A stretch of DNA of 64,000 bases from Candidatus Giovannonibacteria bacterium RIFCSPLOWO2_02_FULL_45_28 (GCA_001780725.1 MFIM01000028.1:10368-74367); one strand, 5' to 3'. Positions 8,736 to 42,350 are shown, counted from the first letter of the stretch. The notes: generated by a model not told the origin, from the sequence alone. Numbers and translations: made by a program.

Positions 8736-9662
8736 GTGAAAATTAAGATTGGCAGGTTTGAGATTTATTCTCTGATGGACGGCTATTTTTGGCTGGATGG
8801 CGGAAGAATGTTCGCGGATCTGCCAAAGCTTAAATGGCAGACGATTTGCGTGCCGGATGATAACAACAGAATTCGGCTGGCCGCGAGATGCTATTTGATT
8901 AAGGGGCGCACGCTTACTCTTTTTGATACGGGCATGGGAAATCCGCCAGATCCAAAGTTCCCAAAATTTATGGGCGCTTCCTATTTGGATTTTTTTGGAA
9001 TTAATCAGAACGACGGCAACCTAATAATTAATCTAGAAAAAGCCGGTTTTGCCAAAGAAGACTTAAGATTTGTCACGCAAAGCCATTTACATCTTGATCA
9101 TTCTGGCTGGAACACATACACAAACGAAGAGAAAAAAATTGTGCCAGTTTTCCCAAACGCTGTTTATCTTATGGAGGATTGGGAGTGGCGGGCGGGAATG
9201 AACCCCCATCCTCGCCAGAAAGACAGTTATTTGAAAGAAAATTTTGTTCCGCTGGAAACCGCCGATTTGGACAACAAACTTAGATATTTGTGGAGGGTGA
9301 AGCACGATATAGACAAATGGGGGCGAACAAAAAACAAATTTCAACTGGAACCCGGCCTTACTTTTATAAGAACAGGCGGACACACCGATGGACATTGGGT
9401 GGCCCTAATTGAATCCGAAAACAAAAAAGCTTTTTTGGCCGGAGATTTGATTCCTACGCATAAGCATATAGTCCCGGGAAATTTAATGAGCTACGATTCA
9501 GATTTGAATAAAGTGTTTGGCGAAAAAATTAAATTTCTGACGAAGGCATGCCGCGAGAAGTGGCTGATTCTTTTTGACCACGACCCTGATTTTACAGGAG
9601 GTTATGTGGCCAAAAACCAAAAGGGACATTTTGAGTTTCACCCCTTTGAAGGAGGTGCGTAA
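8736..9662 (+). CDS. Metallo-beta-lactamase-fold hydrolase (YtnP-like)
   Basis: LDGGRMF, HLHLDH, GGHTDGH, AGD, FDHD. Confidence 0.88.
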   Translation: MKIKIGRFEIYSLMDGYFWLDGGRMFADLPKLKWQTICVPDDNNRIRLAARCYLIKGRTLTLFDTGMGNPPDPKFPKFMGASYLDFFGINQNDGNLIINLEKAGFAKEDLRFVTQSHLHLDHSGWNTYTNEEKKIVPVFPNAVYLMEDWEWRAGMNPHPRQKDSYLKENFVPLETADLDNKLRYLWRVKHDIDKWGRTKNKFQLEPGLTFIRTGGHTDGHWVALIESENKKAFLAGDLIPTHKHIVPGNLMSYDSDLNKVFGEKIKFLTKACREKWLILFDHDPDFTGGYVAKNQKGHFEFHPFEGGA

Positions 9663-9844
9663 TGTTTTGGAGCAAATTGGCAAGTTTTTTGATGACCGTT
9701 GTTTGCTCAATGTCCTTTATGTATTTCCATGTTTTTTCGGTAGCGCGAAATTTTAGCCGCTGGTGGGAAATTGTTTTTCTCGGATTGGCGGTGGCTTCGG
9801 GTTTAGTTTTTCTTTGGATCCTTCAAGGAAAATTTGGGAACTAA
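9662..9844 (+). CDS. Small membrane protein
   Basis: Two hydrophobic segments; TAATG coupling and GGAGG SD. Confidence 0.6.
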   Translation: MFWSKLASFLMTVVCSMSFMYFHVFSVARNFSRWWEIVFLGLAVASGLVFLWILQGKFGN

Positions 9845-9919
9845 GTTCCCAAGCGACGATCATCGCCCCGATTGACTTTCGGGGCGTTTTTTCGCTAGGA
9901 TGCGGATAGAAAAGGAGAT

Positions 9920-11101
9920 GTGATGCAGTACAAAAAGGGGCTAAGGGGCTATATCGCCGGGCAGACGAGCATTTGCGAATTAAACGAGAAGACAAAACGG
10001 ATTACCTACAGAGGGCGTGATATTGAGACTCTTGCCGGAAAAGTTCCGTTTGAAGAGGTTGCCTACTTGCTATTGGGCTCCCGGCATGCGTCTTGGTTTG
10101 AACTTAATGAATTTAAAATTCGGGTGTGCACCTCTTTTTGTAGTTTCGGTTTGGGGAAGTGGGAGAAAGTTGCGGAAACACTCGCGGCTTTGCCGCCCGA
10201 AGCGCATTCCATGGAGCTTTTGAGGCATATAATTAACGCTTTCGCGATGTATGACGACAGGCGTAAGCCGCAAGATGAGGCGCATGACCGCGAGATTGCA
10301 ATAGATCTAGTAGGCCTTATGATTTATTTTGTCGCTTTGGTTCAAAGGCATAAAGAAGGCCTAAGCCCGTTGCTGATTATACCTTCCGACAAAGGATCGC
10401 TGGCGGCAAACATTTTTTATCTGCTTGGGAAAAAGCCTTCGCCGTTAGAAGTTGAGGTGATGGATGTGCTTTTTACACTGTACGCCGAGCACGAATTTAA
10501 CGGGAGCACCTTCGGTGGCGTGAGAATGGCGGCGACTTTGGATACGGATATTTATTCCGGAATGATTAATGGGGTCGGGAATCTCAAGGGTCTGCGCCAT
10601 GGAGGCGCGAATGAAGCCACATGGGGACTAATACAAAGCTTTGCGGATGTTGTGGACGTTGAAGACTATCTTTTAAAAAAAATCGGCGAGACTCTTGAGC
10701 AAAAAGCCGGTTGGAAAATGCCCGGATTCGGGCACGCGGTTTATAAAACCGGCGATGCCAGAGTGCCGATTATTAAAGATTACATATACAGGCTGTCTCG
10801 CGAAAAGAAAAATATGATCTACTTTGATATATGCTGTAAGATTGAACAAGCGATGCTGAAAGCTCACAGACTTTATCCGCTCAAAAAGTACCCGTCGTTT
10901 AGGTGGTGGTTTCCGAATATAGATTTTTGGGCGGCGCCGGTTTATTACTTGATGGGCATTCCTCATTATCTGAACACCCCGCTTTTTGCGGCATCGCGCA
11001 TCGCCGGATGGGCTGCCCATTGGATTGAGTGTAAATACGAACTCAAAGAAAAACTCATCCGCCCAAGAGCGAAGTATATAGGCCCAAAACCACAAACTTA
11101 G
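9920..11101 (+). CDS. prpC: Citrate/2-methylcitrate synthase
   Basis: AEHEFNGST, HGGANE, GFGHAVYK, FPNIDF, RIAGWAAH; near prpD/prpB. Confidence 0.85.
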   Translation: MMQYKKGLRGYIAGQTSICELNEKTKRITYRGRDIETLAGKVPFEEVAYLLLGSRHASWFELNEFKIRVCTSFCSFGLGKWEKVAETLAALPPEAHSMELLRHIINAFAMYDDRRKPQDEAHDREIAIDLVGLMIYFVALVQRHKEGLSPLLIIPSDKGSLAANIFYLLGKKPSPLEVEVMDVLFTLYAEHEFNGSTFGGVRMAATLDTDIYSGMINGVGNLKGLRHGGANEATWGLIQSFADVVDVEDYLLKKIGETLEQKAGWKMPGFGHAVYKTGDARVPIIKDYIYRLSREKKNMIYFDICCKIEQAMLKAHRLYPLKKYPSFRWWFPNIDFWAAPVYYLMGIPHYLNTPLFAASRIAGWAAHWIECKYELKEKLIRPRAKYIGPKPQT

Positions 11102-11112: not shown

Positions 11113-11361
11113 TTATTTATAGTGATTGTTAACGTCAATGATTTCTATTGTGTCTTTTTCTCGAAAAATAAAAATCGTCCGGTATTTGCGGTCAATTCGG
11201 AAACTCCAAATTCTAAGCGTCCGCGGTTCAAGAAGTTCTGTTTCCAAACTCGGATGAAACGGGTTGGATTCAAAAAATTGCTTTTGTTTTTCAAATTTAT
11301 TTTCAAGCTGTCGTTTACGCAAATATTCAACAAGGTCATAATGAAGCGGTAAAATTTTCAT
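11113..11361 (-). CDS. RelE/YoeB-type toxin
   Basis: NPFHPSLETELL, WSFRIDRKYR, NNHY. Confidence 0.82.
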   Translation of the reverse strand: MKILPLHYDLVEYLRKRQLENKFEKQKQFFESNPFHPSLETELLEPRTLRIWSFRIDRKYRTIFIFREKDTIEIIDVNNHYK

Positions 11362-11364
11362 GAA

Positions 11365-11589
11365 CTAAGTTCTGAAATAGCTTGATCGCTTAAACCCTCT
11401 TTTTAAGCTTGCTAAAAATTTCTTGTTATATTTTTTTGTTGCTTCAAGGGAAAACATTATCTCTTTTATATTTTTTGTTGGCGGCGCGGCAAAAATGTTC
11501 TGCTCCATCAATTGGCGCAGATAATCATACCGAAGTCTTTTATCCACCAACTCTTCATATTCTTTTTTGGGTATGGTCACGGTTACCAT
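11365..11589 (-). CDS. Putative antitoxin
   Basis: 74 aa VTIPKKEYEEL gene immediately upstream of the toxin. Confidence 0.7.
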   Translation of the reverse strand: MVTVTIPKKEYEELVDKRLRYDYLRQLMEQNIFAAPPTKNIKEIMFSLEATKKYNKKFLASLKRGFKRSSYFRT

Positions 11590-11896
11590 AGTTAAATAAT
11601 AAGTTTATAAGGTCAATTTGTCACTATTGACAAGGATTTGAGGGTGTGACAAGCTTGAATCAGAAAAAGGGGGTAAATAACAATGTTTTGTTTTGTGGTT
11701 TTTCTCGAATACGCCCGACGCACTTTTAGGAGAACTTAATTGCGGGGTGACAAAAACCCAAATTAAAGTAGAGAAAACCTATCTTATCACTGACTAGTTT
11801 GCACCAAAGCCGTCCGGAAATCCTGGCGGCGTTTTTTTATTTATTTGCCTTTCCTTCCGGTTTAGGTTAAAACGGACTTAGATTTGGAACGATGTG

Positions 11897-13276
11897 ATGG
11901 AATTAAATACAGCCAATTTGCTGGATTATCTGGCTGAATTTGCCTGCAATTTGAAATACGAAGATTTGCCGGAAGAGGTTGTGCGCGAAGCTAAAAGAAG
12001 AATTTTTGATTCTTTGGGGTGTTTGATTATGGGCGCGCGGCACGATGAAGCGGTGAAATTGGTGCGCCATGGGATGGCCGGAAAAGAGTGGCAGACGCAA
12101 CTTGTGAACGGCTTTGCCATCAGCATGGACGGCTCTTACTCTTTAGAAAACGCAGCTTATTTAAACACTCATAGTATCCGCGCCCTAGACTGGAATGACA
12201 CTTATTTGTCGCTGGAGCCCGCGCATCCGTCTGACAACATCGGCGCTATTTTGGCTTTGGCAGGAGTCTGTAGCGGGAAAGAATTGATCACGGCTTCGGT
12301 TTTGGCATACGATATTCAATGCAGATTTTGCGATGCGTTTTCTTTGCGGAAAGAAGGCTGGGATCATGTCGGATATCTTGAGATCTCTTCTGCTTTGGCG
12401 ACCGGGAAAATTATGAGGCTTGATTTCAAAAAAATGCGCCATGCCGCCTCGCTCGCATTGCGATTTTCGTTTTTGCGGCAGATAAGAGCCGGCAATTCGC
12501 TCTCCAACGCCAAAGGGCTTTCCGCCGCGGAGGCGGTTATGTTGGGCGTTCATTCTGTTTTGGAAGCAAGCTGGGGCGTGACAGGACCGGAAGAAATTTT
12601 AGAAGGCGAGTGCGGTTTTATAAAACAATGCGCCGGAGAACAAAAATTTGAAGTCGGCGCGTTTGAAAATTTGGGGTCTGATTTTAAACTTTTTACCACG
12701 CACATCAAATTTTTTCCGGTTGAATACCACGCGCAATCCGCCGTCTGGTCTGCGCTGGGACTCCGTGAAATGTTGGGAGGTGGCGCGGACACCGAAAAAA
12801 TAAAAGAGATTAAAATCATATCATCGGAAGCCGCAAAAAATATTATTGGCGGCGAGCAAAAAAAGGAAGTTAAAACGAAGGAGTCCGCCGATCATTCCAT
12901 TTTTTACATTACGGCTGTGGTTTTGGCGGACGGCGAGCTGACTTTAAAACAATACGATCCAATCCGGTTTTCTGATCCGAAAATCATTTCGCTGATGGAT
13001 TTGATGACGATTCAGGAGTCGCCGAATTATTCGCGAGCGTATTGTTTTAAAATGGCGCCCGAATTCGGCGTTACTCTGGTTTGCAGAATGAGGAACGGAG
13101 AGTTGTGCGTGTCCGGAGAGCATGTATATCCCAAGGGCCACTTCGCCAACCCCTTGAGCGATAAAAAGCTTAAAAACAAATTTGGAGAGCCGATGGACTG
13201 GTTGGACTTTGTCTGGAGCCTGGAAAAATTAAATGCAAAAGATCTCTATTGGATTTTGCGGGATCTAAAAGTATGA
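11897..13276 (+). CDS. prpD: 2-methylcitrate dehydratase (MmgE/PrpD family)
   Basis: LDWNDTY, HPSDN, KFFPVEYHAQS, ADHS, PKGH. Confidence 0.9.
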   Translation: MELNTANLLDYLAEFACNLKYEDLPEEVVREAKRRIFDSLGCLIMGARHDEAVKLVRHGMAGKEWQTQLVNGFAISMDGSYSLENAAYLNTHSIRALDWNDTYLSLEPAHPSDNIGAILALAGVCSGKELITASVLAYDIQCRFCDAFSLRKEGWDHVGYLEISSALATGKIMRLDFKKMRHAASLALRFSFLRQIRAGNSLSNAKGLSAAEAVMLGVHSVLEASWGVTGPEEILEGECGFIKQCAGEQKFEVGAFENLGSDFKLFTTHIKFFPVEYHAQSAVWSALGLREMLGGGADTEKIKEIKIISSEAAKNIIGGEQKKEVKTKESADHSIFYITAVVLADGELTLKQYDPIRFSDPKIISLMDLMTIQESPNYSRAYCFKMAPEFGVTLVCRMRNGELCVSGEHVYPKGHFANPLSDKKLKNKFGEPMDWLDFVWSLEKLNAKDLYWILRDLKV

Positions 13277-14163
13277 ACCTTAAAGAATTAATTGGCGCAA
13301 AAAAGCACCTGGTTCTCGTGGGCGTTACAGAGCCGATAGAAGCTCTCATAGTGAAAGCCGCAGGATTCAAAGCGGCTTACATTTCCGGTGCGGCTCTTTC
13401 AACCAAATTGGGTTTTTTGGACGAGGGGCTGATCAGTTTGGAAAAAATGGTTCAGGTGGTGAGCGATATCATAAAAGCGTCCGATTTGCCTCTTTTGGTT
13501 GATTGCGATACCGGACTTTGGTCTTCCGATTCGGAGGACTTTCAAAAAAAAGAAAGCCCGGAGGCGCAGAAAGAAATGGCGCACGCCATGATGCATCTTC
13601 TTGCTGACGCCGGAGCGGACGCTGTTCAGATAGAAGATCAGGCTCCCGCAAAAAAGAGATGCGGGCATCTTTCGGGAAAAGAGCTGGTTTCAATGAACGA
13701 TATGTTTTGGAAAATCAAAATGCTGGCTTATTGGAGAAAAAACAGAGATCAAGTAATAGTTGCGCGCACAGACGCGCGGGCGGTGGAGGGATTGGACGGC
13801 GCAATTTTCCGTGCTCACCGCTACATAAACGCCGGAGCGGATGCTATTTTTCCGGAAGCGCTGGAATCTTTGGAAGAATTTAAAGAATTCCGCCGCCAAG
13901 TCCCGAAAGTCCCGCTTGTTGCAAACTCGGCCGAATGCGGCAGAACTCCTCCATTTAATGCCGATCAGCTTTTCAGCGCTGGCTACCGGATTGTTTTAAT
14001 CCCGGCGACGCCTTTTCGGATGATGCTCCGCACTTTTAGAGACGCTTTGCAAGAAATAAAAACTTTTGGCTCCCTGAATTTCGCTGTTGAAAACGACGAA
14101 TTGATTTCAAGAACCGAACTGAATAAATTTATAAAAAAACATTCAAAAGTTTATAAAAAATGA
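13273..14163 (+). CDS. prpB: 2-methylisocitrate lyase (ICL/PEP mutase family)
   Basis: YISGA, DCDTG, IEDQ, KRCGH, ARTDA; ATGA overlap with prpD. Confidence 0.9.
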   Translation: MNLKELIGAKKHLVLVGVTEPIEALIVKAAGFKAAYISGAALSTKLGFLDEGLISLEKMVQVVSDIIKASDLPLLVDCDTGLWSSDSEDFQKKESPEAQKEMAHAMMHLLADAGADAVQIEDQAPAKKRCGHLSGKELVSMNDMFWKIKMLAYWRKNRDQVIVARTDARAVEGLDGAIFRAHRYINAGADAIFPEALESLEEFKEFRRQVPKVPLVANSAECGRTPPFNADQLFSAGYRIVLIPATPFRMMLRTFRDALQEIKTFGSLNFAVENDELISRTELNKFIKKHSKVYKK

Positions 14164-14218: not shown

Positions 14219-16279
14219 TTGCATATGCCTAAATCCTCGGATTTTACACCGACCCGCAAGATCTTTGTCCCGACAAAAGAAGAACACATCCGGATGTACA
14301 AGCTTTTACTCCTAACTTCTGTTTTGGGCAGGGAGCTTGACAGAAGAAAAGATGAATTTGAACCCATTAAAATTTTCACTGGCATCGGCCAAGAAGCTAT
14401 TTATGTAGGTTCGGTTTCAGCCGCGGAGAAATACGATTGGTTCGCGCCGGACCATCGCGCCATGGGCGTGCTTTTGGGCAGGGGACTTACGCCCAAAGAG
14501 ATCATCTGCCAGGACGGCGCTTTTGCGGAGTCAATATATAGCGGATATAATTTCGGCATTCACATAGGAAGCCCGGAGCACCACTTGATTCGCTTTGAGT
14601 CTGATATGGCGCTGAATGTCGCTGTGGGCACGGGACTTATTGACGCTGTTTACTACACCCGCGATATTATTGAAAAAAAATCTTCCGACGAAAATCCGGT
14701 ATTGCTCGCTTATTTGGGAGACGGCGCGTCCGCGCACGGCAACGCGCATTCCGCTTTTCTTTTTGCTTCAACTAGAAAGCTTCCCGCACTATTTTTTATA
14801 AATAACAACGGTTATGCCATAAAAACGCCGGTGGAATACCAGCGGGCGCTGGCACGATTGGGCAGAATCGCGGAAGGTTACGGTATGAAGTTTTTGGTTG
14901 TTGACGGAAACAATGTTTGGAATGTGTGGAACGCAACTAAAATGGCGCTTGATGATATCAGAAACGACGGCGGACCGTGGATAATAGAATGCTGCACTTT
15001 TCGGGTATCAGGGCATAATGCCCACGAAACTTCTGAGATGTCCAGTTATGTTCCAAGAGATCTTCGTCTGGAATGGTTAGGCGAAGATCCGCTTGAGCAC
15101 TATAGCTTGAAGCTCAAGCTAATGAGATTTTTGGATGATGAGAGCGAAAAAATTTTTAGGATAGAGGCGGAAGAAAAAATCGCAGAAGCTTTCAGTGCCA
15201 TGAAAGCCTTTTCTCCTCCTTCAAAACTTCATCCTGTTTTCGCCCCCAGAAACACTGCCATTTTAACCACGCCAAAGACCTCCGAGAGAATACTAACTTA
15301 TAGCGCAGCAATCAACGAAGCCTTACGGCAGGCAATGGAAATGGATCTCGCAGTAAGGATTTTTGGGGAAGATGTTGAAAATGGCGGAGTGCACGGTGTC
15401 ACCAAAAAGCTTAATAAGCAATTCGGCAAAGAAAGGATTTTTCATACTTCTCTGGATGAGAATGGAATTTTTACTTATGCGATTGGCATGGCGCTGGCCG
15501 GGCTCAAGCCTTCGCCGGAAGTTCAGTTTCTCCCGTTTTTAAAGTATGCTTTCGGACCAGTGTCGAATTATCTTGCGACGCATCACGCAGTTACCGGTCA
15601 GGGATTGTCGGTAGTTATGCGAGCTCCGGCAGGCGGCGGATTTATTTCAAACAACTGCCACCAAGAAATGATTGAAGCAATGCTGGCGCACGGCGGAGGC
15701 ATTAAGATTGTTTGCCCATCAACGCCTTATGCTGCAAAAGGTTTACTCATGGCATCGTTTCGTGATGGCAACCCGGTGCTTTTTGTAGAACAAATTTCTC
15801 ACTACGGCAAAAAGGGCGAAGTGCCAGAGGAGCCGTATGAAATACCGATTGGCGAAGCAAAAACATTGTTGGAAGGCAGAGACATTTCAATTATTACTTA
15901 CGGAGCGATGATGGTTGAGCGGACATTGAAAGCGGCGGAGGCGCTGGCCAAGGAAGGTATTTCTGCGGAAATTATTGACTTGCAGACGATCGTACCAATG
16001 GACAGAGAAGCTGTTTTGTGTTCCGTGACCAAAACCGAAAGAGCGCTTATAGTCCACGAAGCCAAAACCAAATTCGGAGTTGGCGCGGAAATCGCAAGCA
16101 TGATCGGCGCTTATGTCAGCGAAGTGAGGCGGGATATAAAAGAAATGTCCGATTTCTTTGTTGCAACAAAAGTTCTTGGCGCGAAAGACGGGCCGGTTAC
16201 GGCGCATCCAGCGTTGGAGGTCTTGCGCTTGCCGCAAGTCGAAGATATAGTAGCGGCAGCAAAGGAGATGGCGCGATGA
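14219..16279 (+). CDS. 2-oxoacid (branched-chain type) dehydrogenase E1, fused alpha-beta
   Basis: GQEA, TPP motif GDG...NN, beta-domain GEDV, EVQF, IIDLQTIVPMD; start may be ATG at 14225. Confidence 0.88.
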   Translation: MHMPKSSDFTPTRKIFVPTKEEHIRMYKLLLLTSVLGRELDRRKDEFEPIKIFTGIGQEAIYVGSVSAAEKYDWFAPDHRAMGVLLGRGLTPKEIICQDGAFAESIYSGYNFGIHIGSPEHHLIRFESDMALNVAVGTGLIDAVYYTRDIIEKKSSDENPVLLAYLGDGASAHGNAHSAFLFASTRKLPALFFINNNGYAIKTPVEYQRALARLGRIAEGYGMKFLVVDGNNVWNVWNATKMALDDIRNDGGPWIIECCTFRVSGHNAHETSEMSSYVPRDLRLEWLGEDPLEHYSLKLKLMRFLDDESEKIFRIEAEEKIAEAFSAMKAFSPPSKLHPVFAPRNTAILTTPKTSERILTYSAAINEALRQAMEMDLAVRIFGEDVENGGVHGVTKKLNKQFGKERIFHTSLDENGIFTYAIGMALAGLKPSPEVQFLPFLKYAFGPVSNYLATHHAVTGQGLSVVMRAPAGGGFISNNCHQEMIEAMLAHGGGIKIVCPSTPYAAKGLLMASFRDGNPVLFVEQISHYGKKGEVPEEPYEIPIGEAKTLLEGRDISIITYGAMMVERTLKAAEALAKEGISAEIIDLQTIVPMDREAVLCSVTKTERALIVHEAKTKFGVGAEIASMIGAYVSEVRRDIKEMSDFFVATKVLGAKDGPVTAHPALEVLRLPQVEDIVAAAKEMAR

Positions 16280-16539
16280 GTCTCGTTGAAATTCATGTCA
16301 CCTTTCAGACCTTTGAAGAGGAGAAAACTGAAGCCAAATTCAAGGTTCTGGATATATTGGTTAGCGTTGGACAGTTTGTCAGAAAAGAAGATGGATTGGT
16401 TACGATTGAGACGGAAAAAGCTACGTTTGACTTTGAATCGCCGGTTGAAGGCTCAATAAAAGAAATCTTTTTAAAAGAAGATCCGGCGCAGGAATATTCC
16501 CACGGTACGTTGTTTTGCACAATCGAGGCTTCGCCATGA
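16276..16539 (+). CDS. Stand-alone lipoyl domain protein
   Basis: IETEKATFDFESP lipoyl-lysine motif; ATGA overlaps on both sides. Confidence 0.85.
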   Translation: MSLVEIHVTFQTFEEEKTEAKFKVLDILVSVGQFVRKEDGLVTIETEKATFDFESPVEGSIKEIFLKEDPAQEYSHGTLFCTIEASP

Positions 16540-21668: not shown

Positions 21669-21783
21669 TCTTTGTTTCTCCTTCTGCCAAGAAAGATAAC
21701 ATAGTAGTCAATACTTTGTCAATAGTGCGTTGTAAATTACAAATGCTATATTGTTTGCAGAAATTAAGGAGGACGAATTGACG

Positions 21784-26995: not shown

Positions 26996-27067
26996 GCCCT
27001 CGTGGTGAAACGGATATCACGCATGGCTTCGGACCATGTGTTCCCCGTTCAAATCGGGGCGAGGGCG
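26996..27067 (+). tRNA. tRNA-Arg(TCG)
   Basis: Acceptor GCCCTCG/CGAGGGC, anticodon arm CATGG-CTTCGGA-CCATG, T-loop TTCAAAT. Confidence 0.9.
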
Positions 27068-27076
27068 CAAATACAA

Positions 27077-34021: not shown

Positions 34022-34096
34022 TCTCGCGGGGCTTTTATTTTTTTCGGAAATGCGCTATAAAGCATGCAGATTGAAAAATCATTTCGGAGGTGGCGG

Positions 34097-35778: not shown

Positions 35779-37095
35779 ATGGATTTTGAGCTTACTGAAG
35801 AGCAAAAAGAGTTTAAGGCGCTAGCGCGTGGAATTTTGGAAAAAGAGCTTAAACCTTTGGTATTGAGGTTGGATGAAAAAAGCGTTTACCATGCAGGGTT
35901 TATAAAAGAGATTTTGGAAAAAGAGATTGGGCTTTTGGCGGTTAAGCTGGCTGAAGAAGGTGTCTATGCCGCAAAATTTATAGCGGCTTTGGAAGAAAAG
36001 TTAAAACTTTTGGCGCGCGCCCTGCCGGAAGAGAGTGCTTATCCGTTGGACTTCATAAAAAAAATGGGGAACCTCGGCTTTATGGGCATTTTCATTCCGG
36101 AAGAATACGGAGGATTGGGGAAGAGTCTTTTTGAATTCGCGCTGGTGGCAGAGGAGATCGCCAGAGTTTGTTTGAGTGCGGCAACTGCTTACGGTGTAAT
36201 TGCTCTGGGAACCTTGCCGATTTTGCTTTCTGGCACGGAAGAACAAAAGAAAAAATACCTGACCAAAATCGCTTCTGGAGAGATGCTGGTCGCTTTTGCC
36301 ATTACGGAAGCTGATGCCGGATCAGATGTTATGGCAATGAAAATGCGCGCGGCGCGCGATGGAGATTTTTACGTTTTAAACGGAATGAAACAATTTATTA
36401 CTAGCGCTGGACCGTCAGACATTTATTCTGTTTTTGCCAAAACTAATCCAGAAAAAGGCGAGAGGGGGGTTTCCGGATTTATCGTGGAAAAAGAAACTCC
36501 GGGACTGGAATTTGGCGAAAAAGAAAAAAAGCTGGGCATCCGTGCATCAGAAACCAGAAGCCTTATTTTAACCGATTGCAAAGTCCCGGCAGAAAATTTA
36601 ATCGGCGGGAGAGAAAATTTAGGCGCAATTCATATTTTAAATACCCTTAATCGCTCGCGGATCGTGGTTGGCGCATTGGGAGTCGGATGCGCAGAAGGCG
36701 CGCTGAAACAAGCCATTTCTTACGCAAAAGAGAGAAAACAATTTGGCCAGAGCATTGCGAGCTTTCAGATAATCCAACACAAACTTGCAGAGATGGCCGT
36801 ACGCGTTGAGACAGCGAAGCTTTTGGTTTATAAAGCCGCTTGGCTTGCAGGCCAGAAAGATACCGGAAAAAGCGTTTTGGCTAAATTCGGCGCGATGGCA
36901 AAATATTTTGCGGCTCAAGCGGCTTGCAATAACGCTGATGATAATATTCAGATTTGCGGCGGCATGGGTTTTATGGAGGAATTTGGAGCAGCAAAACGTT
37001 GGCGTGACTCCAGAATTCTGCGTATCTACGAGGGCACCGACGAAATCCAGAAAAACGAAATCGCCAGGATTTTGATAAAAGAAAGCGCAAATTAA
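35779..37095 (+). CDS. Acyl-CoA dehydrogenase with triplicated N-terminal segment
   Basis: ITEADAGSD, KKLGIRAS, RKQFG, GGMGF, IYEGT. Confidence 0.94.
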   Translation: MDFELTEEQKEFKALARGILEKELKPLVLRLDEKSVYHAGFIKEILEKEIGLLAVKLAEEGVYAAKFIAALEEKLKLLARALPEESAYPLDFIKKMGNLGFMGIFIPEEYGGLGKSLFEFALVAEEIARVCLSAATAYGVIALGTLPILLSGTEEQKKKYLTKIASGEMLVAFAITEADAGSDVMAMKMRAARDGDFYVLNGMKQFITSAGPSDIYSVFAKTNPEKGERGVSGFIVEKETPGLEFGEKEKKLGIRASETRSLILTDCKVPAENLIGGRENLGAIHILNTLNRSRIVVGALGVGCAEGALKQAISYAKERKQFGQSIASFQIIQHKLAEMAVRVETAKLLVYKAAWLAGQKDTGKSVLAKFGAMAKYFAAQAACNNADDNIQICGGMGFMEEFGAAKRWRDSRILRIYEGTDEIQKNEIARILIKESAN

Positions 37096-37096
37096 C

Positions 37097-37543
37097 GTGA
37101 ATGTAAGCCAAACTGAAACTTATATCAGAAAATTGTTAGAGAGTGCCACCGCGCACAAGCGCGAAAAAATGGAACTTGCCGTGATAAATCTCAAAGAAAG
37201 GTCTTTGACAATCAAGGTCGGCGCCGATAAAAGTCGTGGGGTTCCTTATCAAAAAGTTAATCAGCTGCAGGGCGGCTATGCGGCCGTGTTTACCGATTCT
37301 CCGATGTGGATTGTTCTAATGTTTGATAAATCTTTGCGAAATAAGGTAATTCGCACTTCTAAAATTGAAACGCATTGGTTTAAACCGGCGCGCGCGAACG
37401 AAGGACTCGTTGTTCACGCGCGCTATAGGCGGCAGGAAACTAAAAACGGCAAAACTCGATTTTTCAGCTCTGCCATAATCAAAAACCGCAAAGGCGAAAC
37501 GGTCGCCGTAGTAAAAGCAGTAAACCAACTTATAGAAAAATAG
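37097..37543 (+). CDS. PaaI-type hotdog-fold thioesterase
   Basis: N.LQGG....TD motif, FKPA. Confidence 0.7.
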   Translation: MNVSQTETYIRKLLESATAHKREKMELAVINLKERSLTIKVGADKSRGVPYQKVNQLQGGYAAVFTDSPMWIVLMFDKSLRNKVIRTSKIETHWFKPARANEGLVVHARYRRQETKNGKTRFFSSAIIKNRKGETVAVVKAVNQLIEK

Positions 37544-37621: not shown

Positions 37622-38920
37622 TTGAGAGGTTTTATGTGGTTTGCGCGCGAAAATGAAGTTTATGTAGTGGGGGTCGCTGGAATTCCTTTTGTAGCGATTG
37701 ATGTCGGTGTTTTGCCAAGCAAACTTAAGGAAACTGCAAAAAGGGTAATAGAGGTAGACATTCCGCGGCTGGAAGCCGAATCGGGACTTAAAATAAAAGC
37801 TGAATACCCGTTTAATAAAAGCTCTTATTCCGGTATCGCTGCGCGAGATTTGGCGCTGGTTGCGCTGGAAGCGCTTTTTAAAAACGTGCCGGCAATAGCT
37901 CCAGAACGCGTTGATGTATTCAGGATCGGCTCTGTGATTTGTCATAAAACAGAAGAGATAAATATGCACGCATTTGCAAAAGTTGTCGCGCTTCGTGCAG
38001 GAATGAAACGCGCGGACAGCGAAACAAAAGACAAAGCGTGCTCCTCCGCTTTGGCCGCAGCTGGGGAAGCATATCGCATGATAAAAAACGGCGATGCGGA
38101 TTTTGCTGTTGCTGGCGGCATTGAAAAAATGTGCGATGTGTCCGACCGGCTTGTGCGTCTTGGTCTTACAAATCCTTTTGATGGACGATTGATGGCTGCG
38201 CTTGCAAACGAGGTTGCTGGAGAATTTAATCTTACCAGAGAAGAGCTTGACGACTACGCGTACGGATCATGCCGGCGCGCGAAAGAATGGCAAGGAAAAC
38301 ATAGATTTATAGCGCCAGTCCAAACGCTGAACGGAACTATTATTCAATTTGATGAAAGAGTAGAAAGACGGGCTGTGGACCGAAAGGTGTTTGCCAAAGC
38401 GCAACGTTATCCGCAATATGCCGACAAGGAAGATTCGCCAAAATGCGACGTTGTAACATGGCTAAATTCCGCACAATACGCAGGTGGTGGCGGATTTGTA
38501 TTTTTAGCCTCCGGCAAAATGGTAAAAAAACACAATCTTTCCAAACTCGCTAGAATCTTGGCGTTTTCTGTAGCAAGCGGCGGAGAGCCAAAAAATTTTA
38601 TTTTGAAACCAGAAGAAGCGATTCAAAAATGTTTGGATGCGACCGGCCTCCATTGGAACGACATTGGACATATTGAAGATAATGAGGCTTTTTCGGTTGG
38701 TCCGGTACTTTTAATGCTGTTGCACCATATTGAAAGGGAGAGAATGAACCGCGGTGGCGGCGCAATTTCCCACGGACACGCCATTGGTGGGACAACCGGA
38801 AGGCTTCTTGTTAAAGACATAGACATTATGGAGCGCGACAAAGAAAAATATACCGTTGTCACTGCATGCAACGCGGTAGACGAAGCCCCCGCGATGTTTT
38901 TAGTAAATCCGTACGTTTAG
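37622..38920 (+). CDS. Thiolase (divergent)
   Basis: KACSS, NEAF, GGAISHGH, CNAVDE; start uncertain. Confidence 0.85.
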   Translation: MRGFMWFARENEVYVVGVAGIPFVAIDVGVLPSKLKETAKRVIEVDIPRLEAESGLKIKAEYPFNKSSYSGIAARDLALVALEALFKNVPAIAPERVDVFRIGSVICHKTEEINMHAFAKVVALRAGMKRADSETKDKACSSALAAAGEAYRMIKNGDADFAVAGGIEKMCDVSDRLVRLGLTNPFDGRLMAALANEVAGEFNLTREELDDYAYGSCRRAKEWQGKHRFIAPVQTLNGTIIQFDERVERRAVDRKVFAKAQRYPQYADKEDSPKCDVVTWLNSAQYAGGGGFVFLASGKMVKKHNLSKLARILAFSVASGGEPKNFILKPEEAIQKCLDATGLHWNDIGHIEDNEAFSVGPVLLMLLHHIERERMNRGGGAISHGHAIGGTTGRLLVKDIDIMERDKEKYTVVTACNAVDEAPAMFLVNPYV

Positions 38921-38970
38921 TATGGATTTTTTTCTTTGTTGTGCTATACCCAAACTAGATCAGGTTTAAA

Positions 38971-40123
38971 AATGGCCAAACGCAGAGAAGCTTACATTGT
39001 AGCGATGATGCGGTCGCCCATCGCGAAAGTTGAAAAAATTAAAGGAACAGAAACGTACAAAAGCGCGATTTCTTCGCTAACACCACAAGAGCTTACGCGG
39101 CAGGTTTTGCGCGGGCTTTTTATCTTGAACGGCCTTGCACCAAACTGTGTTGACTTTTTTGCGATGGGGTCCGCCGTTTCTTTGAAAACCGCCGATCAAG
39201 CGCCCGTTAAAGAAATCGCCTTGCTTTCAGAAATGGAGCATGCCGACTGCGAGCTTGTTGAAAAAGCGTGCTCTTCCGGACTTGTTGCAGCGTATCGCGC
39301 CGCGCAAAGTATTTGGCACGAAGGTGCGGATTTCGCGATCGGCGGTGGGATAGATATGATGAGCCAAGATGCCGCAAGGACCAACGCCGCGCTTTGGGAT
39401 TCTCTCGCCGGAAAGTTTATGTACCAGTTGGCGGATGAAAAAGCCGTTGAGTTGGGTATCTCGCGCGAGGAACACGACAAATACGCTTCTGAAAGCTACG
39501 AACGCGCCAAAAAGTTCCTCTACAACACCGGCTCATACGTTACTGCGATTGTTATCCCCGGCCAGGAGCAATTTCTTCTGACTTTTGATGAAATTCCGAC
39601 CATGCGCGATATGACTTTGGAAAAAATCCAGAGAGTGCGCGTTTTTGAAGAATGCCAAATTCTTACTCCGGCAAGCTCTTCCAAGTGGGGCGACGGAGTC
39701 GCGGTTGCAGCGTTTGCCTCGCCGCGATTTGTAAGAACTCATAAACTGCGCCCACTGGCTCGCTTCGTTGCTTTTACTAGGGCAAGCGGCAATGAGCCAA
39801 AAAATTTTGTTACCGAACCCGCTAAGGCGGTGAGAAAACTGCTTAAAAAAACGAAAACAGAAATAGAAAAAGTAGATGTCGCTCTTGTCAACGAAGCATT
39901 TGCCACGTCCCCGCTTGATTTTATGCGAACAACTGGAATGCCGCACGAAAAAGTAAACCCGAGAGGCGGGGCGATTGCTCTAGGACATCCATTGGGCATG
40001 TCGGGAATGCGGATTATGAGCGAGGCGGTGCACATTTTAAACCAAGAAAATAAAAACATCGCGATTGTTTCCGTTTGCAACGCAAAAGACGAAGCAACCG
40101 CCGCGGAGATTCACAGAACATAA
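38971..40123 (+). CDS. Thiolase (divergent)
   Basis: KACSSG, NEAFA, GGAIALGHPLG, CNAKDE; probable start at MAKRRE (about 38971-38972). Confidence 0.88.
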
Positions 40124-40147
40124 AAAGGCCGACTAGTCGGCCTTTTT
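40122..40147. terminator. Bidirectional terminator (perfect palindrome)
   Basis: AAAAAGGCCGACTAGTCGGCCTTTTT between convergent genes. Confidence 0.8.
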
Positions 40148-42099
40148 TACTCATCTTCTCCGCCCCTTTTTAACTTTTTGAATCTTTCTTCTAAAAACTC
40201 AATAATCATTCTAAGCGCATCGTCTGTTTGGAAAGCAGCAACGACGGCGTTGAATTCATAATTACCAATTCCTAAAAGAATACTATTTTCGTTTCCTTTC
40301 CAAATTGCTTGCCTCGCCAGCCGGAAAGATTCCGGCGGTTTTCCTTTCCAAAACTTCCACGCGCCCCACGATTCCGTGAACTCGCTTATCCAATCCCAAA
40401 GAGTGTAGTGAATCGGCTCCCGCTTTTTTTTGCCAATTTTGTCGGCATTTGCCACGAGTTCCATCAAGCGCTCTTCTGTTATTTTATCAACCGCTTCATC
40501 AACCCAAGGCATTCCGACTTCTTCGCCAAGTTCATATAAAGTGGCGCCTCGCAAAATCATCCGTAGCGCTTTTTGCAAACCGGCCCTTCGCGGAAGAGTC
40601 TGCGTCCCTCCGCCTCCGGGCTTAATTCCGCGCTTAAGTTCAACAAGACCTATTTTGGCGCTTTTTTCCGCAATAATATAATCGCATGCAAGCGCCCATT
40701 CGTAAGCGCCCCCAAACGCCGAACCTTTTATCGCAGCGATTACTGTTCCCGGATAGTCCATAGCCTCATGGATTGCCGAGTGCCATGTCTTTATCGCGTA
40801 CCTTGCCGCTTCTTCGCTCAACATGGCCGCCAAAAATTCGTCTATGTCAGCGCCCCTTGCTCTGTTGATTTCCAAAATGACGCACATTGCGCCCACTTGC
40901 TTTGCAAGGCAGAATTTTTCCTTTAATTCTTTTACAAGGTGAAGCGGCAAGGTTTTTCCGCTCCATCCTATGCGCGCGCAAGATTTATCCGGCGCAAATT
41001 CAAATTTTACACTTTTCCTGTCTTGGTAAAATCCTCCAAGTGGAGATTTTTTGCCGAGTTTCCCTTCGGTGGTCATTTTTTCCAGTATTTCTGGAACTTC
41101 CCAGCGGTCAGATTCCTGAAGCTTGAGCATTCTGCAGCAATCCGCCGCAACGTCAACGCCAACATGGTCAATCAATTTGTAAGGGCCCATTTCAAACCTA
41201 ACCTCCGGATCTTTGCCGCTGTCAACAAGTTCAATCATTTCATAAGGGCCTTTCGGCATTGCCGTCCCCAGTTTCATAAGCGCATCAACGTTTTCTTTAA
41301 ACTTTTCTTCGGACATACCGAGAAGTTCGTGGCCTTTGTCTTTCACAATTAAATCCCGCGCGGCCGCTAAAAACTCATCAACTATCAGCCGGGCGACTGG
41401 GTCCGAAAACCAAGCACCGGTTCCGAACGCTTTATCAATTTTTCGGAAATCAGCAGTGGCTCCCAGTTTTGCAGACGCCTGAACCATTCTAACCAGCAAA
41501 CGGTTCACAATGAAGCCGGGCAGATCCGGAGCCCAAAAAAGCTTTTTACCCAAAAGACGCGCAACGTCGATCGCAGCCTTTTCAATATCCAAAGAATTGT
41601 CCCGCAAATTACCCTTATGCAAAATTGCCTCAACCGGAGGCATGGCGGACACCGGATTAAAAAAATGCAAACCCATAAATCTTTCTGGGTGTTTTAGGCC
41701 AGCTGCCAACCGGGCAATCTGAAACGTAGAGGTATTGGTAAACATCGGCGCCTCTGGCGGAAGAAATCTTTCCAATTCCTGATAGAGCGCAATTTTAAGG
41801 TTCGCGTTTTCTTTAATCGCTTCAATAACTGCGTCCGCGGAAGCCACGTTTTTAACATTTTCCGGAGTTGTCTTGTAAAACTTTATTCTTTCAAAAACTT
41901 CCGTGACAGCCTCTCTGGAGCGATAAACAAATTTGTAGTTTTTAACCGTTTGAAAAATTGCAGCCGGAAGGGTTTCTTTGGCTTTCGCTAGTGCTCCCGG
42001 AAAACTGTCAAAAAGCATAACACCCACCTTCGCTTTAGCCAGCTCTGCTGCAACGCCGGACCCCATAACTCCAGCGCCAAAAACAGCAACTCTTTTCAT
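40147..42099 (-). CDS. 3-hydroxyacyl-CoA dehydrogenase / enoyl-CoA hydratase fusion (HAD first)
   Basis: GAGVMG, NTST, GLHFFNP, PGFIVNR; crotonase GGAYE and GLVE..RG..PGGGG. Confidence 0.9.
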   Translation of the reverse strand: MKRVAVFGAGVMGSGVAAELAKAKVGVMLFDSFPGALAKAKETLPAAIFQTVKNYKFVYRSREAVTEVFERIKFYKTTPENVKNVASADAVIEAIKENANLKIALYQELERFLPPEAPMFTNTSTFQIARLAAGLKHPERFMGLHFFNPVSAMPPVEAILHKGNLRDNSLDIEKAAIDVARLLGKKLFWAPDLPGFIVNRLLVRMVQASAKLGATADFRKIDKAFGTGAWFSDPVARLIVDEFLAAARDLIVKDKGHELLGMSEEKFKENVDALMKLGTAMPKGPYEMIELVDSGKDPEVRFEMGPYKLIDHVGVDVAADCCRMLKLQESDRWEVPEILEKMTTEGKLGKKSPLGGFYQDRKSVKFEFAPDKSCARIGWSGKTLPLHLVKELKEKFCLAKQVGAMCVILEINRARGADIDEFLAAMLSEEAARYAIKTWHSAIHEAMDYPGTVIAAIKGSAFGGAYEWALACDYIIAEKSAKIGLVELKRGIKPGGGGTQTLPRRAGLQKALRMILRGATLYELGEEVGMPWVDEAVDKITEERLMELVANADKIGKKKREPIHYTLWDWISEFTESWGAWKFWKGKPPESFRLARQAIWKGNENSILLGIGNYEFNAVVAAFQTDDALRMIIEFLEERFKKLKRGGEDE

Positions 42100-42119
42100 G
42101 TCGTCATCTCCCTTCGAAA

Positions 42120-42350
42120 TCAGCTATGAAGATCGACTATCTGACCTTCATCGACAGCTTTCAACAAGCATTTGCCGCAAGCGCAGAGTTTTCCGTGATT
42201 CCCGGAGTTTTCAAAGCACTCCGTGACAATAGCTTCGGCCAATGCTTCCGGCAGGGCGCGCAAAATCTCTTGGGTATTTCTCAAGTAGCTGTCTATATCC
42301 AATCTCCGCTCCATTTCTCTCTCAATAACCTTTTTAATCAGATCTTTCAT
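42120..42350 (-). CDS. Small hypothetical protein
   Basis: GGAGG SD, first gene of the unit with the HAD/ECH fusion, CACGKC motif. Confidence 0.6.
   Translation of the reverse strand: MKDLIKKVIEREMERRLDIDSYLRNTQEILRALPEALAEAIVTECFENSGNHGKLCACGKCLLKAVDEGQIVDLHS

Follow-up and report, generated by a model that had tools for sequence, protein, structure and literature searches.

Genes and organisation of the locus

The window analysed here is a 64,000-nucleotide stretch of DNA from Candidatus Giovannonibacteria. Genes for acyl-CoA enzymes form two compact blocks within it, at 8.7-23.3 kb and 32.8-42.1 kb, and a third block sits on a separate contig. All the enzymes named in an earlier sequence-only reading were recovered in place by NCBIfam and Pfam profile searches, with E <= 1e-22 for prpC, prpD, prpB, fused E1 alpha-beta, E2, LipB, the mutase, the B12-domain/MeaB protein, two acyl-CoA dehydrogenases (ACADs), the FadD-like ligase, two thiolases and the 3-hydroxyacyl-CoA dehydrogenase/enoyl-CoA hydratase fusion (HAD-ECH). 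The catalytic motifs said to be retained were found conserved across relatives in alignments.

8736..9662, + strand: YtnP-like metallo-beta-lactamase-fold hydrolase (NF047919 E 4e-37, below cut-off)
9920..11101, + strand: PrpC, 2-methylcitrate/citrate synthase II (TIGR01800 E 2e-86; His, His, Asp motifs kept)
11113..11589, - strand: inserted small RelE/YoeB-like toxin gene and upstream putative antitoxin ORF, outside the pathway (weak Pfam HigB/YoeB, E 5e-4 to 7e-4)
11894..13276, + strand: PrpD/MmgE 2-methylcitrate dehydratase (PF03972 E 5e-58, PF19305 E 2e-32)
13249..14163, + strand: PrpB methylisocitrate lyase (TIGR02317 E 1e-77; catalytic loop motif kept in 6/6 rows)
14219..16279, + strand: fused E1 alpha-beta 2-oxoacid dehydrogenase, likely branched-chain (PF00676, PF02779, PF02780)
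16276..16539, + strand: stand-alone lipoyl domain (PF00364 E 1.4e-9; lipoyl Lys kept in 7/7 rows)
16515..17204, + strand: E2 acyltransferase, catalytic core only (PF00198 E 2e-34, sole Pfam match; His-x3-Asp-Gly motif in 7/8 rows)
17201..17593, - strand: 130-aa Cys-rich ORF travelling with the module (homologues 77%, 51% and 40% in G005, G018 and G060)
17590..18309, - strand: LipB lipoyl/octanoyl transferase (TIGR00214 99.9 bits, cut-off 83.55; Lys and Cys kept in 6/6 rows)
18364..20034, + strand: B12 acyl-CoA mutase catalytic subunit, Phe75/Gln194, isobutyryl-CoA-mutase-type signature (TIGR00641, over cut-off)
20068..21174, + strand: B12-binding domain fused to MeaB-type GTPase, like the IcmF N-terminal half (PF02310, PF03308)
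21751..23316, + strand: ACAD1, short-chain-type core with ~110-aa helical C-terminal extension (Pfam; model pLDDT 92)
27002..28648, + strand: CCA-adding enzyme, conserved core flank (profile match; upstream of patatin in G007, G018, G019)
32816..34021, + strand: patatin-like lipase (PF01734 E 3e-4; Gly-rich loop retained, as are the Ser and Asp motifs)
34064..35731, + strand: FadD-like AMP-forming acyl-CoA ligase (NF004837 E 2e-104)
35779..37095, + strand: ACAD2, ~50-aa insertion in N-terminal helical domain (profiles; catalytic Glu kept)
37097..37543, + strand: predicted PaaI-type hotdog thioesterase, 148 aa (ESM Atlas features 0.92, TM ~0.8 to 4HBT clusters)
37622..38920, + strand: thiolase 1 (TIGR01930 E 2.5e-56; Cys-His-Cys retained, C-N-A motif in place of the C-terminal CxGGG)
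38936..40123, + strand: thiolase 2, paralogue of thiolase 1 with the same altered motif (TIGR01930 E 7e-66)
40147..42099, - strand: HAD-ECH, HAD first (PF02737, PF00725, PF00378; His and both Glu kept)
42403..43572, + strand: metK, conserved core flank of the second block, outside the pathway (TIGR01034; adjoins the block in G001, G007, G019)

About 9.5 kb of other genes separates the blocks (NYN, rpsO, a XerC/D-like recombinase, the CCA enzyme, two tRNAs and pectate lyase). The module had been described as interleaved with core genes; core genes do lie between and beside the blocks, but fine interleaving is not what is seen. As claimed, the scan of 56 ORFs turned up neither a transposase nor a phage structural gene, but the window carries one tyrosine recombinase and two small RelE/ParE-like toxin genes with putative antitoxin ORFs. 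The ORF start of the CCA-adding enzyme overlaps tRNA-Arg, and its true start is likely later. The YtnP-like protein has a 38% homologue within a like cluster of G043 (L101) and is possibly an acyl-CoA hydrolase. The Cys-rich ORF gave no match in the Pfam search.

Host genome and integrity of the assembly

The host is a tiny-genome groundwater bacterium (886 kb, completeness 97.97%). The closest named loci belong to Ca. Giovannonibacteria of the Parcubacteria (mutase 63-91%, MurC-like core gene 57-79% identity) and the NCBI lineage is the Parcubacteria group, which bears out the suspected CPR identity. The rarity of the trait (acyl-CoA dehydrogenase in 2/250 other genomes of the phylum) would suit an assembly or binning error joining foreign DNA to a CPR contig. 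This explanation is refuted. Single contigs of 11.2-11.3 kb join the beta-oxidation block to metK in 3/4 runs, a contig at 5500-9590 joins pcrA to the first block (one run), and read depth is flat except at conserved or tRNA spots, so that no chimera was seen at the junctions bridged. Codon use and GC are ordinary, the nearest named homologues are from Giovannonibacteria, and other genomes show the same gene order and flanks. The shared order is the stronger evidence, because three of the four runs used for bridging may themselves be the source of this DNA. The module genes are genuine and unbroken, and their assembly is correct.

Methylcitrate and 2-oxoacid dehydrogenase genes

PrpC, PrpD and PrpB of the 2-methylcitrate cycle were all found, each scoring below its equivalog cut-off; prpC occurs in only 4/8 genomes carrying the module (carriers). 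Aconitase (PF00330) was found in 0/5 carriers tested and 14/14 control genomes, and therefore the methylcitrate route would need PrpD for both steps.

Profiles and motif rows place both E1 and a lipoyl-bearing E2 at the locus. The best PDB match of the E1 alpha half is human branched-chain 2-oxoacid dehydrogenase (BCKDH) E1 alpha. Like the branched-chain complex, the set has the ThDP motif, the lipoyl Lys and the E2 His motif, with LipB next door. It differs in the fusion of E1 alpha to beta and in the division of E2 into a free lipoyl domain and a bare catalytic core, with no E3-binding domain detected in either ORF by Pfam and no E3 or LipA found. Fused E1 is present in 8/8 carriers and in G016, which has just this gene among those searched. 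LipB was the only lipoate ligase/transferase domain seen in carrier G000; at the G012 and G018 loci retrieved, LipB was not seen. A gene of the Leu/Phe/Val-dehydrogenase family lies within the G012 cluster.

The B12-dependent mutase

Phe75 and Gln194 of the mutase align to Tyr and Arg of the human and Mycobacterium methylmalonyl-CoA mutase (MCM) structures; HcmA has Ile and Gln. Phe/Gln is found in 10/11 full-length CPR rows, and distant homologues split cleanly into 92 with Phe/Gln and 17 with Tyr/Arg (n=109). Phe and Gln at these two substrate positions are what we take to be the isobutyryl-CoA mutase signature. Methylmalonyl-CoA mutase identity was rejected on these residues, and under this residue rule the enzyme is predicted to be of the isobutyryl-CoA type. 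The accessory parts of such an enzyme are present, namely the B12 domain, the MeaB chaperone and the adenosyltransferase PduO, which scored over cut-off on contig C1; the earlier remark that B12 handling is absent from the window does not hold for the genome as a whole.

Compared with IcmAB/IcmF and HcmAB, the TIM-barrel subunit best matches HcmA (4r3u), and Gln likewise occupies the MCM Arg position. Residues 13-332 of the B12/MeaB fusion align to the N-terminal half of IcmF (56-387), with the Asp-x-His-x-x B12 motif present. Unlike IcmF, whose reactions are described in PMC10481361, the enzyme is split into two genes; genus g7 instead has barrel and B12 domain fused and MeaB separate. The nearest non-CPR homologues of the mutase are <=46% identical.

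Acyl-chain genes and the link to lipids

Ligase, ACAD, hydratase, HAD and thiolase of canonical beta-oxidation are all present with catalytic residues. The Foldseek best match of the ACAD1 model is MmgC/SCAD, with a full-length TM of 0.74 to the VLCAD type. The altered thiolase motif is common to all 17 family thiolase rows. The 148-aa ORF had zero Pfam family matches. The patatin match is weak here, but E-values for its three syntenic orthologues run from 1e-12 to 4e-6, in agreement with the original call. Between the CCA enzyme and metK, a conserved order is found in G000, G001, G007, G015, G018 and G019: patatin, then a ligase or a gene of the PlsC family, then ACAD, a pair of thiolases and HAD-ECH. 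Where contigs end, it is seen in part.

A connection with lipids had been proposed, and the patatin-FadD block, the PlsC-family gene that immediately precedes patatin in G007 and G018, and GpsA in 6/8 carriers versus 0/12 non-carriers support it; the GpsA association is not independent, because the carriers are related. PlsC is not carrier-specific (6/8 versus 5/12) and in G000 is a fragment at a contig edge. G000 also has a glycerophosphodiester phosphodiesterase domain. PlsY and CdsA were found in 0/5 carriers tested, and therefore no de novo phospholipid route is seen.

Missing partners

ETF (PF01012) was found in 0/20 family genomes, including 0/8 carriers, and in 10/14 control genomes. 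SDH, hydrogenase and quinol oxidase were absent from the G000 scan, and ATP synthase from G000 and G001. No E3 was identified in the carriers. PF02852 occurs in 2/8: the G000 protein scored 532 bits as MerA (cut-off 454) and 383 with the E3 model (cut-off 409), and the G019 protein, its gene cut by a contig end, was best matched by glutathione reductase below every cut-off; neither was called as E3. LipA (TIGR00510), propionyl-CoA carboxylase/carboxyltransferase (PF01039), ADP-forming acyl-CoA ligase and acetate kinase were each found in 0/5 carriers tested; with completeness at only 81-88% in three carriers, and with divergence, some partners could have escaped detection.

ETF, E3, aconitase and LipA, noted earlier as absent from the window, were not found in the whole genome or in near-complete relatives either. 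The full route to pyruvate and succinate is not supported as it had been drawn, since these partners and propionyl-CoA carboxylase were not found there and the mutase is predicted not to be of the methylmalonyl-CoA type.

Distribution and selection

The module occurs in 8/20 genomes of this Giovannonibacteria family and spans four genera; carriers and non-carriers are sister genera. It was likely inherited from the ancestor of these genera. dN/dS is 0.06-0.38 for 14/17 module genes (three are saturated), and the module is under purifying selection. Mutase, ACAD and thiolase matches in the family are all free of internal stops. Alleles are strongly mosaic, and genera have exchanged module genes at their existing sites. 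GC is 0.42-0.49 throughout, codon distance is inside the genome range and homologue scores fall steeply outside a small clade; with the fixed flanks, these features led us to reject a recent mobile island. The earlier view of a domesticated module agrees with its fixed position among core genes, its unremarkable codon use and dN/dS <0.4.

A protein on contig C25 was considered as an Ltp2/Sal retro-aldolase and rejected, its motif being HDAF in 9/9 rows and not YDHF or YDCY (PMC12329534).

Discussion

Since no usual electron carriers were found in the genome, reshaping or salvage of lipids and amino acids would be likelier than burning them for energy. The intact acyl-CoA set may work at low flux, salvaging and reshaping fatty acyl chains and branched or aromatic amino-acid skeletons obtained from other cells, and is probably no energy pathway; we give this reading a probability of about 0.45. 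Gene content, residues, synteny, selection and missing partners were observed, and from them we infer substrates, direction and electron sinks. Patatin would free fatty acids from acquired lipids, FadD would activate them, and ACAD2, HAD-ECH and the thiolases would shorten the chains. E1, lipoyl domain and E2 would convert branched 2-oxoacids to branched acyl-CoAs, and the mutase would interconvert isobutyryl-CoA and n-butyryl-CoA. PrpC/D/B, where present, could remove propionyl-CoA, hotdog thioesterases could release acids and recycle CoA, and PlsC (and GpsA) could place new chains on scavenged lysolipids. As ETF was not found, the ACAD flavins would need a non-standard acceptor, either O2 or an enoyl-CoA such as cinnamoyl-CoA from the linked ammonia-lyase and CoA ligase; as E3 was not found, dihydrolipoyl electrons would pass to another acceptor, e.g. 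thioredoxin. CoA, FAD, ThDP, lipoate and B12 would be imported. CPR cells are reported to be rich in lysolipids, probably host-derived (PMC7242380).

The E1 alpha match to BCKDH, mutase Phe/Gln, absent carboxyltransferase and G012 dehydrogenase-family gene point to the branched-chain arm, and the lack of ETF, E3, aconitase, LipA, ADP-forming ligase, acetate kinase and ATP synthase argues against energy use. Against salvage stand the distribution of PlsC and its fragment in G000, prpC in half of the carriers, LipB not seen at two loci, and the cost of ~20 enzymes for low flux. Remodelling alone also leaves the ammonia-lyase arm unexplained, and with neither LipA nor a separate lipoate ligase found, so is the arming of the lipoyl domain.

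The salvage reading has to be weighed against other accounts. An unlikely, though the least unlikely, of these is Stickland-like, internally balanced fermentation of amino and fatty acids, in which oxidation of 2-oxoacids and acyl-CoAs is coupled to cinnamoyl- or crotonyl-CoA reduction, with AMP-forming ligases, reversed with pyrophosphate and tied to an H+-pyrophosphatase (H+-PPase), as the source of ATP. Syntrophus is a precedent for such reversed ligases. An aromatic ammonia-lyase in 6/8 carriers versus 1/12 non-carriers, with a CoA ligase next to it at each of the six loci read, H+-PPase adjoining the module in G005, G007, G012 and G018, several AMP-binding enzymes in carriers, and tryptophanase, proline and P5C dehydrogenases and a class IV aminotransferase in G000 would all fit. 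However, several predicted thioesterases would waste thioester energy, ADP-forming ligase and acetate kinase were not found, the lyase is of uncertain specificity (27-28% identical to its own orthologues; best PDB matches PAL/PAM), and we know of no way to move electrons from dihydrolipoyl to ACAD. Slightly less probable is a self-balanced acyl-CoA metabolism in which cinnamoyl-CoA derived from the ammonia-lyase, or another enoyl-CoA, takes ACAD electrons directly, without ETF or E3; it would tailor or build the cell's own branched membrane chains, with allele swapping between genera retuning it to host lipids.

ACP-independent, CoA-based synthesis or elongation of fatty acyl chains, with branched primers from E1/E2 and mutase, is improbable. 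As in the archaeal thiolase/DUF35/FabG/MaoC synthase (10.1101/2024.07.05.601840), a thiolase-like/DUF35 operon (7/8 carriers) is mixed with beta-oxidation genes, and FabG (TIGR01830 301.9 bits, cut-off 297.75) and MaoC take the HAD-ECH position in G007; SDRs around thiolase 3 in G001, G007 and G018, GpsA, PlsC and the altered thiolase motif also suit synthesis. But the thiolase-like DUF35 partner lacks the nucleophile (Cys to Gly in 9/9), FabG with MaoC is found in 1/8 carriers and MaoC in G007 only, and the Pfam scan of G000 showed no MDR-type enoyl-CoA reductase, which this source gives as required; membership in the archaeal type was rejected on these three points. There is also no ETF to drive ACAD backwards and no clear bulk acetyl-CoA source in G000, and PrpCDB and patatin point to breakdown. 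A shade more improbable is the use of cinnamate and branched acyl-CoAs to make a specialised small molecule or a cell-surface acyl decoration, where interactions with hosts or competitors would drive the allele swapping. Lyase, CoA ligase and BCKDH-type supply occur together in some natural-product pathways, the gene for a Rieske oxygenase alpha subunit precedes E1 in G007 and G019, missing recycling partners would matter less at trace flux, and the alleles are mosaic; yet no ketosynthase, PKS or NRPS domain appeared in the G000 scan (E 1e-9), and PrpCDB and patatin would have no obvious role. Lost partners, patchy content (prpC, LipB), the 12/20 family genomes without the set, the lone E1 of G016 and high divergence could suggest a decaying remnant of a formerly complete respiratory pathway, non-functional or partly used. 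Intact mutase, ACAD and thiolase reading frames, catalytic residues kept at 30-90% identity and dN/dS well <1 make this very improbable, and the selection data largely refute it.

Lands-type deacylation/reacylation of phospholipids employs a phospholipase A-type enzyme, an acyl-CoA ligase and an acyltransferase. The present set shares these in patatin, ligase and PlsC-family protein, but is joined to chain-shortening and branched-chain enzymes, with PlsC linkage in two genomes only. The suspicion that similar clusters had already been reported was right: Ca. Parcunitrobacter nitroensis, a Parcubacteria genome of ~0.88 Mb, has a fatty-acid/propionate cluster (Castelle et al. 2017, PMC5220378). 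By the available part of that description, both have prpCDB, two ACADs, thiolases, hydratases, an AMP-forming ligase, and a B12 mutase near prpCDB followed by a B12-binding/kinase-domain gene (supplement s4); both lack propionyl-CoA carboxylase and epimerase, and their enzymes are highly divergent. The same part lists ETF, FeS oxidoreductase, ADP-forming ligase, 2-oxoacid:ferredoxin oxidoreductase, SDH and a respiratory chain; of these, POR_N in 1/5 was all that was found here. It does not list E1/E2/LipB, patatin or ammonia-lyase, which are present here. It names the mutase methylmalonyl-CoA mutase and calls the capacity very rare, whereas the present set spans four genera of one family. New here are the module's presence in 8/20 genomes of the family, the failure to find partners such as ETF and E3, purifying selection with in-place gene swapping, the isobutyryl-CoA-type mutase signature under the assumed rule, the added branched 2-oxoacid E1/lipoyl/E2/LipB set, the aromatic ammonia-lyase arm and the altered motif of the thiolases.

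The origin and shaping of CPR membrane lipids is an open question (PMC7242380); beta-oxidation was reported from no freshwater CPR group, and membrane origin was called enigmatic (PMC9166423). A defined, purifying-selected enzyme set, with carrier and non-carrier genera as sisters, opens the lipid question to comparative work and enzyme assays. Four genera retain ACADs without ETF, and E1/E2 without E3, which suggests either an unknown redox coupling or an intimate reliance on the cytoplasm of the host. Should the residue rule be right, most CPR mutases that carry a methylmalonyl-CoA mutase annotation would be isobutyryl-CoA mutases, which would explain the reported lack of carboxylase and epimerase.

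Organization of the acyl-CoA enzyme genes

Fifty-six ORFs of the window were scanned with NCBIfam and Pfam profiles. All the enzymes named in the sequence-only reading were present. They are arranged as two blocks separated by about 9.5 kb occupied by other genes, and are referred to here as the module.

Module blocks and associated features of the window
8736-23316: block 1; metallo-beta-lactamase-fold hydrolase, prpC, prpD, prpB, fused E1, free lipoyl domain, E2 core, lipB, mutase, B12+MeaB fusion and acyl-CoA dehydrogenase 1 (ACAD1)
32816-42099: block 2; patatin, FadD, ACAD2, hotdog thioesterase, two thiolases and HAD-ECH (3-hydroxyacyl-CoA dehydrogenase/enoyl-CoA hydratase fusion)
11113-11589 (-): small RelE/ParE-like toxin gene inserted between prpC and prpD, with a 74-aa ORF upstream
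23332-23826 (-): second such toxin gene, directly after ACAD1, also with a 74-aa ORF upstream
21267-21668 (-): type IV pilin-like gene in block 1, with a 74% copy within the module of genome G005
26996-27068: tRNA-Arg, overlapping the next feature
27002-28648: longest ORF call of the CCA-adding enzyme, whose true start is likely downstream

Catalytic motifs of the module enzymes are retained in the source genome (G000) and its relatives. The GC profile of the window is flat, and codon use in the 14 module genes tested is inside the genome range (maximum, 94th percentile). The promoter/terminator scan returned 29 sites against 20.0 ± 4.7, and 32 against 22.9 ± 4.6, in shuffles, and was judged uninformative. 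E2 gave no match to the E3-binding domain. In all 17 thiolase rows of the family the C-terminal CxGGG is replaced by C-N/H-A/T, with Cys, His and Cys retained. The predicted structure of ACAD1 shows a confident short-chain-type ACAD fold followed by a helical, VLCAD-like tail, and a fused redox domain was thus ruled out for this extension. ACAD2 has, in both G000 and the related genome G018 (window 35779-37095; L096:5420-6784), an insertion of some 50 aa within its N-terminal helical domain, which looks like an internal duplication. In MCAD, ETF docks near this region.

Assembly and identity of the organism

The window lies in an 88.7-kb contig of an 886-kb genome (29 contigs, 97.97% complete, 0.29% contaminated). 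When continuity across the junctions was checked, single contigs bridging block 2 and metK were found in three of four runs and a contig bridging pcrA and block 1 in one, although three of the four runs may themselves be the source of the window DNA. The mutase search gave 78 candidate stretches. The only named genome loci among them (three, 63-91%) are all Ca. Giovannonibacteria records, which belong to the Parcubacteria group and bear out the CPR identity proposed earlier. The loci L012 and L011 have the gene order of block 1: prpC-D-B, E1, lipoyl, E2, lipB, mutase, B12-MeaB, ACAD1.

Distribution and ancestry of the module

Mutase, ACAD and thiolase co-occur in the same 8 of 20 family genomes; the remaining 12 have none of the three. 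The carriers (G000, its congener G001, G005, G007, G012, G015, G018 and G019) represent four genera and are 81-98% complete. Fused E1 was found in 8/8 carriers and in G016, the matches of this family search being mostly transketolase cross-hits. ACAD was found in 2 of 250 further genomes sampled across the phylum; of 41 genomes from other families of the class, 4 had the mutase. Block order and flanks recur in other genomes, as the synteny check in relatives showed. Block 2 is positioned between CCA and metK, and a block of the type found on G000 contig C25 adjoins block 1 in G005, G007, G012, G018 and G019; the three blocks are thus considered one system.

In the rpoB tree (21 of 25 genomes; G002, G005, G011 and G016 gave no rpoB match), the seven carriers included require three changes, and the sister group of G000+G001 (100/98) is formed by four non-carriers (100/100). 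By itself this tree does not distinguish gain from loss. Together with the fixed flanks it fits a module that would have been present in the family ancestor and lost later. For thiolase 2, 12 homologues at 37-65% precede a fall in score from 241 to 154 bits. For the mutase there are 10 at 56-84%; all others are at most 46% identical, and the named ones among these come from Bathyarchaeota, WOR-3 and others. No recent donor was evident from these two homologue searches.

Type of the mutase

In the alignment, Phe75 and Gln194 of the mutase occupy the positions that are Tyr and Arg in methylmalonyl-CoA mutases, and Ile and Gln in HcmA. We take Phe/Gln at these substrate positions to be the mark of isobutyryl-CoA mutase. 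Phe/Gln is seen in 10 of 11 full-length CPR mutase rows and in 92 distant homologues, versus 17 with Tyr/Arg. The remaining CPR row is a lone Tyr/Arg-type mutase (L111:2404-4353) in G041, where no ACAD or thiolase was found. The B12+MeaB partner aligns with the N-half of IcmF, whose reactions are described in the available part of PMC10481361.

Third block and variants of the locus

Outside the window, a Pfam scan covered 762 ORFs of at least 110 aa (E 1e-9 for 743 of them, 1e-3 for 19; the genome-wide total is 927 ORFs at ≥80 aa). The third block, on C25, encodes an aromatic ammonia-lyase, acyl-CoA ligase, hydratase, third thiolase, SCP2-type thiolase-like protein with DUF35 and a further AMP-binding enzyme. 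In the thiolase-like partner of DUF35, Gly replaces the nucleophilic Cys (9/9 rows). Its reading as an Ltp2 aldolase was rejected, the protein being without the Ltp2 motif as given in the accessible text of PMC12329534. The ammonia-lyase, with PAL/PAM as nearest structures, occurs in 6/8 carriers versus 1/12 non-carriers, and GpsA in 6/8 versus 0/12. PlsC lies directly upstream of patatin in G007 and G018, and at 6/8 versus 5/12 was ruled out as a carrier marker. In G007 the usual place of HAD-ECH is taken by FabG and MaoC. The citrate-synthase match of G012 was ruled out as PrpC: the domain is short and lies within a glycan cluster, next to a CoA-ligase subunit.

A Rieske oxygenase alpha subunit stands immediately before E1 in G007 and G019 (L085:1684-2778, L097:8330-9424), which hints at oxygen exposure. 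Five loci contain, inside the module, members of a conserved 163-241-aa family that carries a Cys-x2-Cys motif, matches nothing in Pfam and has no match in G000. By eye it looks hotdog-like.

Members of the Cys-x2-Cys family
L081:6349-6837
L095:5804-6322
L097:7806-8318
L085:2811-3326
L013:9030-9752

Absence of partner functions

The sequence-only reading listed ETF, E3, aconitase and LipA as absent from the window; these gaps were found again in the genome as a whole and in the other genera, as far as draft genomes and the sensitivity of the profiles allow. B12 handling is likewise absent from the window, but PduO was found elsewhere in G000 by the Pfam scan, together with class II B12 ribonucleotide reductase, GpsA, a GDPD domain and H+-pyrophosphatase. 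Thioredoxin reductase, an NDH-2-like flavoprotein and D-2-hydroxyacid dehydrogenase were also found. The same scan gave no ETF, aconitase, LipA, SDH, ferredoxin oxidoreductases, hydrogenase, ATP synthase or ketosynthases in G000.

ETF was found in 2 of 61 genomes and in none of the 20 of the family; in G043, from another family, it adjoins the mutase. An E3-type dimerisation domain occurs in 2/8 carriers, neither called E3. The sole E3-like protein of G000, on contig C1, is MerA, beside MerT. In none of the five carriers at least 95% complete were aconitase, LipA, ADP-forming ligase domain, acetate kinase, carboxyltransferase, PlsY or CdsA detected, with searches that as a positive control each matched 8-14 of 14 control genomes. 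The same five gave POR_N in 1/5, ATP synthase in 3/5, CDP-alcohol transferase in 2/5, and CoaE as weak matches in 2/5, none above the cut-off.

Other observations were made in G000. ATP synthase subunits were found neither here nor in G001, H+-pyrophosphatase being present, and enolase was not found in the Pfam scan. A PALP enzyme scores as threonine synthase, ruling out threonine dehydratase, and a Cys/Met lyase considered as methionine gamma-lyase is ambiguous, below all cut-offs. In the ribosomal protein operon, rplD and rplC are separated by merA on the opposite strand, accompanied by its MerT-like neighbour and by a DsbD-like gene (L019:3077-5262, C1). Directly after rplK (L11) comes a deaminase/thymidylate kinase fusion (L068:2434-4184, C28); rplA was not seen, which is expected of the OD1-L1 group. 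A nonulosonic-acid cluster (L060:10412-14528, C23) contains an AMP-binding enzyme, glyoxalase-fold protein, phosphopantetheinyl transferase and B12 radical SAM enzyme; acyl tailoring of a surface glycan is possible. Reverse transcriptase and Avd-like genes (DGR parts) are on separate contigs (L051:8799-10220, L017:5184-5528).

Selection and allele exchange

Against the closest available relative, dN/dS was 0.06-0.38 in 14 of 17 module genes and 0.03-0.08 in four core genes, figures that are rough with dS close to saturation; the three saturated module genes gave pN/pS of 0.30-0.42. Module identities are mosaic: ACAD2 of G000 is 73% identical to that of G018 and 49% to that of G001, and between G001 and G015, which belong to different genera, identity is 73-78% across ACAD2, both thiolases and HAD-ECH. 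By contrast, metK, rny, gpmI and a MurC-like gene track kinship. AU tests rejected the G000+G001 pairing for ACAD2 (p 1e-5), thiolase 1 (7e-39), HAD-ECH (8e-88) and the lyase (0.004); a fifth test, on prpC with the L012 copy as close relative, gave 4e-13. The genes were chosen after inspection of the identity matrix, and the trees have 5-9 rows.

Proposed role of the module

The module enzymes would convert acyl chains from phospholipids, and the skeletons of branched or aromatic amino acids, to short acyl-CoAs. Isobutyryl-CoA would be straightened at the mutase step, propionyl-CoA removed and acids released. With no ETF, E3 or ATP-yielding end step, this is not textbook energy metabolism. Low-flux salvage or remodelling is judged the most likely reading, at a probability of about 0.45; its electron sinks and direction we infer.

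Ranked second is a self-balanced fermentation with the ligases running in reverse, a less probable scheme. It is doubtful that the module serves as a chain-building route, and marginally more so that it makes a specialised product. To be set beside the retained motifs and the dN/dS values is the improbable case of a relic; an artefact, beside the bridged junctions and recurrent flanks, is most improbable of all.

The suspicion that like clusters had already been reported in Parcubacteria was right: the available text of PMC5220378 reports one Parcubacterium that has a full beta-oxidation set, ETF included, along with prpCDB and the mutase pair, and rates these capacities as very rare. CPR lysolipids and partial lipid pathways in Nealsonbacteria are reported in the accessible part of PMC7242380, and transferred lipases are noted in that of PMC12455944. 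The parts available of PMC9166423 give no beta-oxidation in freshwater CPR, and those of PMC8359207 are without CPR genome data. No published description of the module in Giovannonibacteria was found in a listing-level literature search, with subscription reviews outside it and an earlier mention possible.

The module is real, old in the lineage and, by sequence criteria, functional. What is new is a variant of a rare CPR trait already known from one Parcubacterium, and its interest rests mainly on the type of mutase, on the exchange of alleles in place and on electron and cofactor partners being consistently missing.
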